Shown: positions 1-12,500 of the stretch, one piece after another
How positions within the stretch are numbered: the first letter of the stretch is position 1
Layout: every line of letters begins with the position of its first letter
Source: Candidatus Angelobacter sp.
GTDB taxonomy: Bacteria; Acidobacteriota; Terriglobia; Terriglobales; Acidobacteriaceae
Length of the DNA: 64,000 bases
NCBI GenBank assembly: GCA_036488825.1
Contig: DASXGZ010000006.1
Location: 1,463 to 65,462, forward strand
Direction: 5' to 3'
Program-made: the position numbers and the translations under genes
The notes under the pieces: generated by a model
What the model saw: only the letters and a program-made list of their open reading frames with translations
What the model was told of the DNA's origin: nothing
The model's database searches: none

Positions 1-2306
1 ACGTTGGGTAGGGGCGTTCCCAGACTCGGGGTTTCAGAATCTCTGAAGAAGCAAGCAGTTGCATCCACAGTGCATTCTGTGGGACCGTAAACATTCAAAA
101 ATAGTATCTTCTGGGCCGCCGTGGGTATCTTCCAATCGGCTTCAGTTAATGCTTCTCCGCCAACCAGCATGAGTCGAGGCGCGTAGACGTTCGCGCTGCC
201 GAGGCCTTCAGCCTTCAGCAATCGGAGCACTGATGGAGTGCAATCGGCCACGTCCACAAAATTCTGGGCCAGGTATGTCAAAAGTTCGCGAGGGTTCGCC
301 CGCACTGCTTCGGGAGTGAGATACAAGGTATGACCCCACGCCATCTGAATCCATTGTTTTACGGAACCATCAAAAACCAGCGACGCATTGACTGCTACCT
401 TCAACGGCCCAGGCAGACTGTATACCGCCTCACGTAAGGCATAGGTCAGATTCGCTAACGACCTGTGTTCGATCATCACGCCTTTGGGCGCGCCCGTCGA
501 CCCCGACGTGTAAAGAATGTAGGCGAGATTTGCGCTGTCGAGTTTACTCTCCAGGTTGTCTTGGGATAACTCCCCGATTGCCGCTGCCTCGCTATCCACG
601 CAAACCAGCTTCGTTTGCTGGTCAGCAAAACGGGCCGCAAAGCATGATCGAGTCAGCACCAAATCCGGTTTGCAATCAAGCAGAATGCGCAGGGTGCGCT
701 CGGCTGGATGATCCGGCTCGACGGGAACATACGCGCCGCCGGCCTTCATTACCGCGAACAGTCCTATAATAAGGTCCGCAGACCGTTCCAGACATATCAG
801 CGCGCATCGCTCCGGCCCGATTTCCAGCCGCCGCAAATAACGAGCCAGTTGATTGGCACGTGCGTTAAGTTCGAAAAAGCTCAATTGTTCTTCCCCAGCC
901 ACCAGTGCCAAGGCTTCGGGTGTGCGCTCCACCTGCTCCTCAAACATCTCCGGCCAGATCTGATCGGAGGGGAACGACACTTGCGTATCCACCCACTCAC
1001 CCAGGATCTGTCGCTGTTCCGACTCCGCCAGCATCGGCAACTCCACGATTCTCAGTCCAGCGGCTCCCGGAGCGGATTCCAGCAAGGTTCGTAGCTCTTG
1101 CGACAACCGATCCAGCACCTCCGGTGCCCATGCTGAGCTCTTGTACTCAAACTCCAGTTGCACCGCGCCTGTTGGTAATAATTTGGCATTCAGAGCGAGG
1201 CGCGCCCTGCTTGGCAGACCAGGTTGCCGCTGCATCGTACAGCGGATGCCGCCTACTGTTTCCGGTTCGGGCAAGCGCTGGAATCGGAAAGCCACGTGGG
1301 ATTCGATTGCTGCCTGTTTCATTGACTCCCAAGAGAGGGAATCTTGCATCAGCCGAACCAACTCGTACTGCTCTGCCGTTTTGCGGATACACTCGCCCAG
1401 TTGCAAATTGTTGCCGCATTCCACGCTGACCGGCAGAAAATGCTCAAACACACCGAAGGCTGAGTTGAGTTCCTCGACTCGCCGCCCGTCATACCAACAG
1501 TGCACGCTCACTTTTTGTTGGTCGGTGAGACGGGCCAGGAGCGCGCACCAGCATGTCAGCAAAAAGACTTCCGGAGAACCGCCGGTCCGACGGGCTGCCT
1601 CTTCGAAATCTTTCAGGCAAATCGACTGGAGTATTGAAATCGCACCCTCGTCCTTCCGGTCCTGTGGGCCAAAGCTGATCTCGGTGGGCAAGACGGGAAT
1701 CGGAACGCACTCTACAACCTGCTTGCGCCAAAACTCGCGGCCTTCTTCGCCTTCTTCACTGCTGAATATCTCCCTTTGCCATTCAGAGAAATCGACATAT
1801 TGAAGAATCTCACCCTCAGCCGACTTGCATTCCGTTTCATACCATTCGAGGATTTCAGAAGCGAAACGCTCAAACGTGATGGAATCGGCGCACATCGAAA
1901 GAAGTGTTATGACCAGAACATGTTGATGCGGAGAAATGGTTTGCACCACGAAGCTGGCAAACGGACCGTTCTCGGGATCGAGCCAGACTTCTTCATGTGG
2001 CCGGCCTTGTCTACCGGGGTCGCCGTTGCGGTCTTCAGTCATCATGACTCGGAATTCTATTTTTGGGGCTTCAGCTATGACTTGGAGCGGGAACTCCATC
2101 CCCGGCAAAGAAGCAAAGCCCGTGCGCAGTATTTCGTGGCGGTTCACGATACCGCGCAGCACGTCTCCCAATCGCGCTACGTCGAGTGGTCCCTCGAGCA
2201 AAAGCGCACACTGTGACTGGGCAAGAGAGCTTTGTTTCTGCTGTAAAGGCCAGATTCTCTTTTGCTGAGCTGAAAGATGAAATCCTTCGATTGTTGTCTT
2301 CATCAT
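1..2306 (-). CDS. Non-ribosomal peptide synthetase, N-terminal part (C-A...); 3' end lies beyond the window start
   Basis: Not in the ORF track because no stop lies in the window. Manual translation of the minus frame from ATG 2306 (second ATG 2303) stays open to position 1. It gives MMKTTIEGFHLSAQQKRIWPL (C1), RHEILRTGF (C2) and YVDFSEWQ (C4). A-domain motifs follow: LAYILYTSGSTGAPKGV (477-527), FDGSVKQW (351-374) and NVYGPTECTVD (63-95). Confidence 0.9.
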   Translation of the reverse strand, partial: MMKTTIEGFHLSAQQKRIWPLQQKQSSLAQSQCALLLEGPLDVARLGDVLRGIVNRHEILRTGFASLPGMEFPLQVIAEAPKIEFRVMMTEDRNGDPGRQGRPHEEVWLDPENGPFASFVVQTISPHQHVLVITLLSMCADSITFERFASEILEWYETECKSAEGEILQYVDFSEWQREIFSSEEGEEGREFWRKQVVECVPIPVLPTEISFGPQDRKDEGAISILQSICLKDFEEAARRTGGSPEVFLLTCWCALLARLTDQQKVSVHCWYDGRRVEELNSAFGVFEHFLPVSVECGNNLQLGECIRKTAEQYELVRLMQDSLSWESMKQAAIESHVAFRFQRLPEPETVGGIRCTMQRQPGLPSRARLALNAKLLPTGAVQLEFEYKSSAWAPEVLDRLSQELRTLLESAPGAAGLRIVELPMLAESEQRQILGEWVDTQVSFPSDQIWPEMFEEQVERTPEALALVAGEEQLSFFELNARANQLARYLRRLEIGPERCALICLERSADLIIGLFAVMKAGGAYVPVEPDHPAERTLRILLDCKPDLVLTRSCFAARFADQQTKLVCVDSEAAAIGELSQDNLESKLDSANLAYILYTSGSTGAPKGVMIEHRSLANLTYALREAVYSLPGPLKVAVNASLVFDGSVKQWIQMAWGHTLYLTPEAVRANPRELLTYLAQNFVDVADCTPSVLRLLKAEGLGSANVYAPRLMLVGGEALTEADWKIPTAAQKILFLNVYGPTECTVDATACFFRDSETPSLGTPLPN

Positions 2307-2656
2307 CGGTCACTCGGTCCTTGCTTTGCGTCTCAAAATCTATTCGCTGCCTGCGGACCCCGTCTTGCTTATCACCAAAGGTGGTGGGCGGAAGGGAAGG
2401 GCCGGAATGCTACCAGGTGTAACATCTGCTGCTTCACTGGATGCTTGGTGCGGTTTGCCATCCAACTCGTTCCATAAATCCGGAAATTCCCGCACCGGTG
2501 TGAGGGCTCTTCTATAAATGCTCACGATGGAGGGCCCGAAGGGCCAATTCAAGCAGTCCCACAATCCAGCAAGACGGATCAGGAACTTCTTGCGCTCCAG
2601 CCGGAGCGGCGGGTTGGAACAAAGCTTGTTGTCTGCATGAAACGGACAGCCACGGT

Positions 2657-10932: not shown

Positions 10933-11594
10933 TTGGTATAGAGGAAACAGAGGTATGAGATGACTGCTAATTTACATAAAGCTTCGGCGTTTGAGTCCAG
11001 AATCGGGATATGTTGATGATCATTTCATTAGAAACACTTTACTACGCGATTCTAGAAGCCCGTTTCGAGAAGCATGAAAACTATCTCATTGATCGTTGTC
11101 TGAAGTCTGCCAGAATGCTTCTTCAAGCTGTTTAGAAAAGGGTTTCCATCTCTCAAGAAGCAGGCTGCCGCCATTCTTGTCCCATTTTTTTCAAGGACTT
11201 TGACTTTTTTGTGGTGAGACGAATGTCTTTGCGCCATTTTTGCCGCAAAGAATGCTTAAAGAAAACCAAAATAACAATTTGGTAGATTGGAAAACAACTG
11301 TACTGAAGAATAATTACTACACTACAAAACACTGTACCGGACAGCCTGTGGTACAGGCATTTATCTACTTCCGTATTAAGCCTTGGCAACTTGTCTTCTC
11401 ATCTGACATTGCTTCCAGAGTACCTGGCAATTGAGTATATGTTGCTTCTGACTACGAACATATCCACCTCTTTTTGCCAATAAACGCTTGTAGCTCATGT
11501 TCACAGTTCCATTTTGGAACAAGATGCATAGCATGGCGCTGAATTTAACGATTTGTCATTGCAACGATGACCTTGTGGTTTTATAACCGATACG

Positions 11595-12500
11595 ATGGGC
11601 ACCTTAAAAAATCGTAATGTCGTGTTTCATAATGTCGGGCTTCATTCAGAAGCGACAGCTCACCAATTGGCGCCATTAGAAAGGTCCCTTGAAGAACTCC
11701 CGGCTTGCTATATATGCAGCGATCACCCGCTTGCCCTTGCCTCGATCAGAGAAGCCATCAGCTCAGATGCGCGGCTGCGTACTAGAGTCCGTTCTTACTA
11801 TCAGGGAGATTCCCGGCCTCTGCCGGGGGTCAAAAACCAGGTCCTAGTCCTCGATACCTTGTCGGTTGGAAACTGGCGCGCGTGTCTTGACAAATGGAGC
11901 TTAGAGGGAGGATTTACTATTGCTCTGATTTCTTCGCAGCCAGGCAACCGCGAACTGGAGCTGCAGCTACTTCTCCTCGGCGCCTCCGGAGTCTTGACCT
12001 TTGCGGACCTGTCTCTGCAGCTCACCGATGCGGTCTACGCGGCTGCAGCAGGACGTCTTTGGTTCAAACGAGAGGTCCTGCATTCCTACGTGAAGCAAAC
12101 GCGCACGGAGCTGCGTAGGGGCTCTTCGTGCCATAAGTTTACGGCACGGGAAAAGCAAATTACCAGCTTGTTGTTGCAGGACCTTTCCAACCGGGCGATT
12201 GCGCAGCGACTAGCGATCTCAGAGCGCACCATCAAATTTCATGTGTCAAACATTCTGCGCAAAGTCAACGTTGGGAGCCGAAAAGAGCTTTGTGAGCTCC
12301 CTGACAGTTTCAACGATTCTCGAGGATTGATGGCTAGCGAGAGTGGAACACAGGCATTCGCCCCCGCCGATTTGCATCATCGGCCGGTCAATCCTCCGAA
12401 GTTGTTGAGCTACTGTCACAAAGAATCGACCGAGGTTGTTGAGCGAAGAACTGTAGACTCGGCAATAGGCGTTGCTGCCACCCCGGCGGCGAAAAGATAA
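11595..12500 (+). CDS. LuxR-family transcriptional regulator (C-terminal HTH, receiver-like N-terminal region)
   Basis: The C-terminal FTAREKQITSLLLQDLSNRAIAQRLAISERTIKFHVSNILRKVNVGSRKEL is a GerE/LuxR HTH. The gene is divergent from the NRPS operon. Confidence 0.8.
   Translation: MGTLKNRNVVFHNVGLHSEATAHQLAPLERSLEELPACYICSDHPLALASIREAISSDARLRTRVRSYYQGDSRPLPGVKNQVLVLDTLSVGNWRACLDKWSLEGGFTIALISSQPGNRELELQLLLLGASGVLTFADLSLQLTDAVYAAAAGRLWFKREVLHSYVKQTRTELRRGSSCHKFTAREKQITSLLLQDLSNRAIAQRLAISERTIKFHVSNILRKVNVGSRKELCELPDSFNDSRGLMASESGTQAFAPADLHHRPVNPPKLLSYCHKESTEVVERRTVDSAIGVAATPAAKR

Follow-up and report, generated by a model that had tools for sequence, protein, structure and literature searches.

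Organization of the gene cluster

We analyzed a window of 64,000 nucleotides (contig DASXGZ010000006.1, positions 1,463 to 65,462 of the forward strand, assembly GCA_036488825.1) from an uncultured soil acidobacterium with the NCBI name 'Candidatus Angelobacter sp.', focusing on a nonribosomal peptide synthetase (NRPS) gene cluster at its left edge. An earlier reading of the letters alone, in the following termed the original prediction, had proposed a minus-strand array of two NRPS genes separated by genes for a methyltransferase, an MbtH fusion protein and a type II thioesterase. By means of an open reading frame (ORF) map and scans against Pfam and NCBIfam, every gene of this array was found at the position proposed for it. 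We estimate with a probability of about 0.7 that the cluster forms the upstream end of a lipopeptide assembly line, orphan and probably functional, with priming by fatty acyl-AMP ligase (FAAL). The features of the locus are as follows, with ACP for acyl carrier protein, C, A and T for condensation, adenylation and thiolation (carrier) domains, GAMT for guanidinoacetate N-methyltransferase and SAM for S-adenosylmethionine:

1..2306, minus strand: NRPS2, N-terminal 768 aa, continuing beyond the window (Pfam, motifs)
2657..3457, minus strand: type II thioesterase, stand-alone, 266 aa from the first ATG (PF00975, motifs)
3583..4179, minus strand: MbtH-CBF-beta-like fusion protein, 198 aa (PF03621, AlphaFold2 model, Foldseek, Pfam CBF_beta)
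4245..5108, minus strand: GAMT-like SAM methyltransferase, free-standing, 287 aa (PDB match, PF27704)
5542..10932, minus strand: NRPS1, FAAL-ACP-C-A(Gly code)-T, 1796 aa (Pfam, NCBIfam, motifs)
10933..11594, no strand: divergent intergenic spacer, AT-rich, 662 bp (GC content)
11595..12500, plus strand: LuxR-family regulator with GerE helix-turn-helix (HTH) motif, 301 aa (PF00196)

The cluster is real and is cut off at the edge of the sequence, with NRPS2 running off as a C-A protein, as had been proposed. Window bases 1-15108 were recovered at 100% identity in a JGI metagenome contig and bases 1-8814 at 100% identity in a Logan contig, and both synthetases are identical to NCBI proteins of the 'Candidatus Angelobacter sp.' metagenome-assembled genome (MAG; NRPS1 = P0391, 100%; NRPS2 = partial P0121). 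The same DNA was present in three independent assemblies, and no frameshift was found across 12.5 kb. Against E. coli genomes, megablast gave no match for positions 1-12500. Leftward extension, which the original prediction had asked for, gained 1.45 kb (L001) and revealed an interruption of the A domain of NRPS2, but it did not recover the whole cluster. All three public assemblies end within NRPS2, ~40 codons apart at most, just past motif a10 in the A-T linker, and the 47-mer at the contig end had no match among metagenome contigs that would have led further. With these breaks, public data are insufficient to complete the cluster. The recovered coding sequence, which exceeds 14 kb, contained neither frameshifts nor internal stops.

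NRPS1 as a lipoinitiation synthetase

The largest gene of the array encodes NRPS1, whose domains are located as follows, all on the minus strand:

10875-9190: FAAL
9138-8917: ACP (GIDSL, residue 637)
8844-7486: C domain (HHLVAD, residue 824)
7419-5968: A domain
5874-5692: T domain (GGHSL, residue 1709)

The Pfam matches comprised AMP-binding (twice), the DIP2-like FAAL C-subdomain, PP-binding (twice), Condensation and AMP-binding_C. Residues 20-578 matched the NCBIfam FAAL models PRK05850, FadD32 and FAAL21/28 with E-values of 1e-123 to 1e-155 and with scores under the full-length cut-offs. The protein combines the elements of a FAAL-primed NRPS, that is an N-terminal FAAL, a carrier, a C domain with an HHxxxD motif and an A-T module with motifs A3-A10. 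Domain calls and motifs agree with the order FAAL-ACP-C-A-T originally read between 10932 and 5542, and this domain content supports the assignment of the locus as a FAAL-primed NRPS cluster of the lipopeptide type. In the NCBI annotation, NRPS1 starts at 10878, 18 codons downstream of 10932. It contains no release domain in cis.

The specificity code of the NRPS1 A domain, DILQLGMIW(K), was obtained from landmark motifs and by an independent MAFFT mapping. Both approaches reproduced the codes that had been read by hand before, the Gly-like DILQLGMIW of NRPS1 and the Glu-like DGKDLGVVD of NRPS2. In the assembly line, the FAAL would activate a fatty acid and load it onto the ACP, and the C domain would N-acylate Gly on the first T domain (T1) to give N-acyl-Gly-S-T1.

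The nearest full-length homologues of both NRPS1 and NRPS2 are 41-45% identical, uncharacterised proteins from MAGs or metagenomes, and the best partial match of NRPS1 (56% identity across 76% of the query) is also uncharacterised. Besides identical MAG copies, no close relative of either synthetase was found among 5.8 billion clustered proteins. Starter proteins with the order FAAL-ACP-C-A-T are common in Pyrinomonadaceae, Blastocatellia, cyanobacteria and Tumebacillus, with ~44% identity to NRPS1.

A C domain without histidines and an interrupted A domain in NRPS2

The second synthetase, predicted to start at 2306 and to leave the window, was confirmed as a C-A protein. Frame 1 of positions 1-2313 was rejected as its reading frame; the actual frame differs and starts at 2306. 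Two domains lie within the window:

2279-1002, minus strand: C domain lacking the HH pair (His-less)
944-3, minus strand: A-domain core with a Glu-like code

The A-domain code DGKDLGVVD(K), obtained in the same two ways as that of NRPS1, contains Lys239 and Asp278 and is one position off the Glu signature DAKDLGVVDK, which is carried without deviation by homologous modules of 41-45% identity. After the extension beyond the window NRPS2 comprises 1251 aa and includes a methyltransferase (M) domain of the Methyltransf_21/FkbM type (PF05050, residues 951-1148) between motif a8 (residue 843) and motifs a9/a10 (residues ~1200-1232). It is introduced by 'LVAYVVL', in agreement with the published boundary of type II M domains, and carries the SAM motif 'DVGANIG', which fits their DVGx(N/H)xG motif. 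The type II M domains of KtzH and ColG O-methylate Ser (PMC8341866); the FkbM-family enzymes of characterised clusters are almost all O-methyltransferases (PMC9259500). Because an FkbM-type M domain is inserted between a8 and a9, residue 2 of the product is probably a methylated Glu rather than plain Glu, most simply the gamma-methyl ester, which is an extrapolation. A literature search for Glu methyl esters made by an M domain returned nothing relevant. Of the product start proposed earlier, fatty-acyl-Gly-Glu, the Gly-like and Glu-like codes were thus upheld, but residue 2 probably carries a methyl group and the Gly-Glu condensation is uncertain.

NRPS2 shares with the interrupted A domains of family 2a (module 4 of KtzH, ColG) the a8-M-a9 placement after an 'LVAY' strand, the DVGxNxG motif and the FkbM assignment. 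Whereas the characterised hosts are of the Ser/Thr type, NRPS2 has a Glu-type code. It further differs from KtzH and ColG in that the module opens with a His-less C domain and in that a polyketide synthase (PKS) module follows in its relatives. In two homologues of NRPS2, P0123 and P0126, two tandem FkbM-type M domains ('FDVGANIGLF' twice) are present inside one A domain, and no description of such a doubly interrupted composition was found.

In the C domain of NRPS2 the sequence 'LLSMCADS' replaces the HHxxxDG motif of canonical condensation domains, which is present in the C domain of NRPS1. The His-less C domain noted in the original prediction is therefore real, and it belongs to NRPS2 and not to NRPS1. 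All 10 aligned modules of the NRPS2 type carried L(P/L)xxxAD in place of HHxxxDG, with the Asp residue kept, and the canonical C domains in the same proteins have retained HH. The His-less C domain looks like a conserved subtype and not like a product of decay.

A gene order in which a FAAL-NRPS precedes a His-less C-A(Glu code, FkbM M)-T module recurred in two other contigs, each with a PKS module next. The homologous module with an adjoining ketosynthase-acyltransferase-ketoreductase module was observed in L008 (10001-18820) and L010 (10001-20769), and in L010 two TauD hydroxylase genes are located between the FAAL-NRPS and the His-less module. By analogy, this recurring order supports colinearity in the window cluster; the missing downstream part may be a PKS, and the cluster may be an NRPS-PKS hybrid. 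The NRPS2 module would add Glu, O-methylated on the carrier and probably present as the gamma-methyl ester, and the chain would then be handed to downstream modules that are not assembled. Non-canonical condensation and carboxyl O-methylation during assembly are the two reactions for which this module, with its His-less C domain and Glu-code A(M) domain, is a candidate.

A GAMT-like methyltransferase related to NRPS-embedded M domains

The protein encoded at 5108-4245, previously described as a GAMT-like methyltransferase, matched the rat and human GAMT structures with an E-value of 1e-23 (PDB 1xcj being the rat protein) and belongs to the precomputed family PF27704, GuanidinoAc_N-MeTrfase. 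The segments 'RWE' and 'DTYP' aligned as well, and we take these to hold Glu45 and Asp134, the guanidino-binding residues of GAMT. By family membership and active-site segments alike, the protein has the sequence characteristics of a guanidinoacetate N-methyltransferase. It has the class I SAM fold in common with GAMT, but contains an additional N-terminal stretch of ~80 aa, and its family members, unlike GAMT, are built into NRPS proteins behind motif a8. Given this position of its relatives, the enzyme probably acts on an amino acid bound to a carrier and not on free guanidinoacetate.

Among the species-representative genomes, relatives of the methyltransferase occurred in only two. In metagenome contigs, 100 relatives were confirmed by a scan, and the best 80 loci (L021-L100) were kept. 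In all 80 the protein ends with the methyltransferase domain, which in at least 38 closes a large ORF, in most cases one with motif a8, and in 23 stands alone, as in the window. Where stand-alone loci came with sufficient flanking sequence, C and A domains were mostly encoded nearby. Relatives positioned C-terminal to a8 showed 43-64% identity to the window protein. Two further loci, L006 (7154-12724) and L007 (3638-10002), were the only ones checked for the sequence behind the methyltransferase, and in both the next ORF resumes with an 'RLVAY/RLAAF' strand, indicating a split, interrupted A domain. In L007 this strand is followed by a9/a10 and a T domain, and the corresponding ORF of L006 has an AMP-binding_C segment and a T domain besides another methyltransferase domain. 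Judged by these relatives, the window methyltransferase belongs to a family of M domains embedded in NRPS proteins, of which it is a discrete copy.

The A domains hosting this family have codes such as DVEEIGVIT, DVENIGAVT, DASDIGAIT and similar ones, with acidic residues at positions 239 and 278. Acidic residues at these two Stachelhaus positions are typical of Lys, Orn or Arg activation. The basic-type host codes together with the kinship to GAMT suggest basic or guanidino residues as targets of the family, with N-methylation at the side chain. In the window cluster, the GAMT-like enzyme would act in trans as an M domain on such a residue from an unseen module, and N-methylation of basic side chains is the reaction for which it is a candidate. 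Six types of M domains have been catalogued, and a type that N-methylates the side chains of basic residues is not among them (PMC8341866); possibly, the GAMT-like enzyme stands for a seventh type, embedded in A domains and with this activity. A literature search for GAMT in NRPS systems yielded nothing relevant.

Conservation of the gene order in related genomes, which the original prediction had suggested to test, was not observed for the cluster as a whole. The full gene order of the window cluster was repeated in no contig among the 80 methyltransferase loci, none of which contained a CBF-beta-like domain or a convincing FAAL beside a stand-alone methyltransferase.

The MbtH-fused domain as a bacterial homologue of CBF-beta

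The gene between those for the methyltransferase and the thioesterase starts at the ATG at 4179 (198 aa) and not at 4248. Its product consists of two domains joined by a Pro-rich linker:

~4167-3955, minus strand: MbtH domain
3912-3586, minus strand: CBF-beta-like domain

The N-terminal half belongs to the MbtH family (PF03621, 73.3 bits at a cut-off of 27; 'GW...WTDMRP' aligns with PA2412) and is ~70% identical to Pseudomonas PA2412. The fusion of MbtH to another domain, recognized in the original prediction, was confirmed, but its partner, then called unknown, was assigned by Foldseek, Pfam, profile and hhalign comparisons as a homologue of CBF-beta. For the domain of ~108 aa, AlphaFold2 gave a model with pLDDT values of about 88-97, and the top Foldseek matches to this model in PDB were all CBF-beta (E-value 6.5e-6 and TM-score 0.63, with 0.61-0.65 across the top matches, normalised to the target; ~20% identity). 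The isolated domain matched Pfam CBF_beta (PF02312) marginally, with 25.7 bits at a cut-off of 25, and 36 of 53 bacterial relatives matched this family as well, the best with 2.3e-12. A profile built from the bacterial relatives retrieved CBF-beta alone from 177,635 PDB sequences (E-value 4.6e-5; next match 0.76), and hhalign against human CBF-beta gave a probability of 94.7% over 108 columns. Sequence match and fold are both those of the CBF-beta family and, on these comparisons and the predicted structure, the MbtH-fused domain is a CBF-beta homologue.

The bacterial domain shares with metazoan CBF-beta (PF02312) the fold and a detectable sequence homology over ~108 columns, but comprises ~105-110 aa, without the helix region at the N-terminus and the tail at the C-terminus of CBF-beta. 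Unlike its metazoan counterpart, it is fused or adjacent to MbtH in NRPS clusters. No Runt-domain partner is known for it in bacteria, and no search for bacterial Runt domains was made. Literature searches for bacterial CBF-beta, for PF02312 and for MbtH combined with 'core binding factor' found no paper describing the domain.

The MbtH-CBF-beta fusion had 3633 homologues, the top 120 of which were 75-82% identical, and thousands of acidobacterial proteins have this architecture; proteins with the CBF-beta-like domain that are linked to NRPS also number in the thousands. The CBF-beta-like domain alone gave 371 clusters at 50% identity, and most of the top 150 are stand-alone proteins of ~110 aa, which are labeled 'MbtH domain protein' by NCBI. 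The accessory gene set is less unusual than originally thought, its genes being individually common, as illustrated by the numbers for the fusion and by the 100 metagenome relatives of the methyltransferase.

The genomic context of the domain is recurrent. In acidobacterial NRPS clusters, the fusion gene is often located directly downstream of a gene for a NusG paralogue (L003/L004 8780-10600; L012/L013 ~9387-10594), which hints at processive antitermination of long NRPS operons, and in L011-L013 a GerE/LuxR regulator gene is also present nearby. In two Rickettsiales loci (L014 8001-8609 and L016 8001-8605), from an endosymbiont of Trichoplax and from a plasmid of the endosymbiont Candidatus Bandiella numerosa, the CBF-beta-like protein (109-117 aa) is encoded by a gene of its own, 43-45 bp upstream of one for plain MbtH, with a phosphopantetheinyl transferase gene nearby and an HSP90/HtpG gene a few kb away. 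In a cyanobacterial MAG (L015 8001-10352), the CBF-beta-like gene is found between genes for a response regulator and HSP90/HtpG, beside a gene encoding an A-T-thioesterase protein, and in another NRPS cluster it adjoins a carbamoyltransferase gene. Apart from the fusions and the two Rickettsiales loci, four loci in all had the domain within NRPS or other secondary-metabolite-type clusters, one of them with an HSP90/HtpG neighbour. The occurrence as a fusion in one lineage and as an adjacent gene in another argues for a functional link between the CBF-beta-like domain and MbtH. The domain is not confined to MbtH partners, since L019 (4848-6212) encodes a 454-aa protein in which an N-terminal CBF-beta-like domain is fused to an EcKL-type kinase, in a cluster with sulfotransferase, TauD-like and cupin genes.

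HtpG is needed for the formation of some NRPS/PKS products, namely colibactin, yersiniabactin and albicidin, which makes a role of the CBF-beta-like domain as a chaperone or adaptor a reasonable guess. In the fusion protein, the MbtH half would activate or stabilise one or both A domains, and the CBF-beta-like half would serve as a protein-binding adaptor or chaperone-type domain. We tentatively propose, at slightly less than even odds, that bacteria possess an undescribed branch of the CBF-beta family, represented by this domain, and that it works together with MbtH, either in NRPS function or in proteostasis. If this holds true, MbtH-dependent A-domain activation has a second, unstudied component, and CBF-beta, a transcription-factor subunit of animals, has bacterial relatives and possibly a bacterial origin; the fusion would place the metazoan fold in a bacterial context. 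Should the domain modulate A-domain activation, folding or partner recruitment, this would also matter for expressing acidobacterial clusters in heterologous hosts.

Comparison with known systems and alternative explanations

In type the cluster, an orphan, is ordinary and familiar, but one of its accessory domains is novel. The order of acyl-AMP ligase, carrier, C domain and first amino-acid module is common to NRPS1, PvdL-type proteins of pyoverdine synthesis and the daptomycin system (DptE/DptF plus starter C domain), and the FAAL-ACP-C logic of lipoinitiation is also that of cyanobacterial FAAL-primed lipopeptides. The best NCBIfam model for NRPS1 was PRK05691, which we take to be PvdL-like; it covered residues 20-1042 and scored 1324 bits, compared to a family cut-off of 4090 bits. 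Part of the pyoverdine system is also PA2412, the MbtH-like protein mentioned above. The window cluster differs from PvdL-type systems by Gly as first amino acid, by the additional CBF-beta-like domain on MbtH and by nearest full-length homologues of only ~44% identity. A siderophore function was considered and rejected: unlike the pyoverdine system, neither the cluster region nor the ten large window ORFs scanned contained chromophore or siderophore genes, a TonB receptor, a siderophore-type tailoring gene or a transporter. A literature search for acidobacterial FAAL lipopeptides returned nothing relevant.

The assumption of a FAAL-primed, probably functional lipopeptide assembly line is supported by intact motifs (HHLVAD, GIDSL, GGHSL, A3-A10, GHSMG), which include all catalytic motifs except for the conserved C-domain variant. 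Several points weigh against it. The T domain of NRPS2, a termination domain, transporters and the downstream modules are all missing from the recovered sequence, and the window shows no A domain with a basic-residue code that could serve the methyltransferase. To assume carboxyl methylation is to extrapolate, because the characterised hosts of type II M domains activate Ser or Thr and not Glu (PMC8341866). The weakest link is the condensation at the Gly-to-Glu junction, which is the least certain step because the C domain there lacks both catalytic histidines.

This last point might alternatively mean that two separate lines meet at the locus. The product of NRPS1 and the thioesterase would then be no more than an N-acyl-glycine lipoamino acid, which the adjacent methyltransferase might methylate, and NRPS2 would start an independent line with a vestigial C domain. 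The position of the thioesterase and methyltransferase genes between the two NRPS genes and the missing HH motif of NRPS2 fit this explanation, as does L008, where the homologous module comes first in an operon behind a gene for an outer-membrane protein and does not directly follow an NRPS. However, the preservation of the substitution and of Asp in 10 of 10 modules suggests selection rather than decay, a FAAL-NRPS was found upstream of this module type in three clusters, and NRPS1 has no cis release domain, so that we consider two separate lines unlikely. The Ser/Thr preference of type II hosts, in particular the action of the KtzH and ColG M domains on Ser (PMC8341866), could also indicate that the A domain of NRPS2 loads a hydroxy amino acid and that the M domain forms an O-methyl ether. 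This appears very unlikely in view of Lys239 and Asp278 in a code just one position off the Glu signature, and of homologues that carry the exact Glu signature and no Ser/Thr-type code. Finally, truncation, His-less C domain and isolated methyltransferase could be regarded as signs of degeneration in a decaying or silent remnant, in line with the incompleteness of the cluster in every assembly and the absence of close orthologues elsewhere. Given the uninterrupted reading frames and the intact catalytic motifs, and given that the shared break in the A-T linker is typical of repeat-induced assembly breaks in NRPS genes, a remnant is hardly to be expected.

With a functional FAAL-primed assembly line as the preferred explanation, the locus adds one more orphan lipopeptide pathway to the biosynthetically rich Candidatus Angelobacter, which is an incremental gain. 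Its main interest lies in three recurrent, uncharacterised parts, namely the CBF-beta-like MbtH partner, the His-less C domain with the Glu-code A(M) domain and the GAMT-like M domain. Angelobacter has been reported as an acidobacterial genus enriched in biosynthetic clusters (PMC9723581); MbtH, FAAL or lipopeptides are not mentioned in that paper.

Thioesterase, regulator and flanking genes

The thioesterase is encoded by a separate gene (3457-2657) and, in agreement with the earlier assignment, is of type II, being a discrete alpha/beta-hydrolase with a PF00975 match (175.8 bits) and a GxSxG nucleophile motif (GHSMG at residue 88; GDHFF at residue 223). Other gene calls gave lengths of 199-263 aa, and owing to a different start call an exact-sequence look-up of the protein returned no record. 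The enzyme would clear mis-loaded carriers.

The divergent LuxR-type regulator, originally placed across a 660-bp AT-rich spacer, corresponds to the GerE protein encoded at 11595-12500, and the spacer measures 662 bp. Its GC content of 40.2%, compared to 53.3% for the window, is among the lowest 0.1% of windows of equal size. The spacer is presumed to be the shared regulatory region of the divergent genes, and the LuxR-family protein would control the promoter region within it. A scan of the spacer for sigma-70 consensus promoters found two sites with 1.7 expected, which is not above chance. The regulator matched PF00196 with 61.1 bits at residues 182-233, and its NCBIfam matches, all far under the cut-offs, were limited to the C-terminal part with the HTH and reached back to ~residue 100 at most. 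Neither Pfam nor NCBIfam revealed a recognisable N-terminal sensor domain. An identity as quorum-sensing LuxR protein was rejected, as an autoinducer-binding domain was not detected and the SdiA and PA1136-family models matched the HTH alone, far below their cut-offs. By its domain content, the regulator is a LuxR-family HTH protein and not a LuxR-type quorum sensor.

A tRNA gene follows 100 bp past the regulator gene:

12601..12676, minus strand: tRNA-Ala(CGC) (ARAGORN)

According to a Pfam scan of the flanking ORFs, the genes to its right are housekeeping genes, and the tRNA gene is likely the right-hand limit of the cluster. Its location at the apparent cluster edge could be that of an integration site.

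Further to the right, positions 15544-16992 encode a protein of glycoside hydrolase family 47 (E-value 1.2e-127). This family consists mainly of eukaryotic mannosidases of the endoplasmic reticulum and Golgi and is unusual in bacteria. A block of genes for outer-membrane biogenesis, unconnected to the NRPS cluster, extends from 36335 to 50792 and encodes AsmA/YhdP-like (1012 aa), TamB-like (1354 aa) and Omp85/POTRA (1102 aa) proteins, with a hydantoinase B/oxoprolinase gene located within it.

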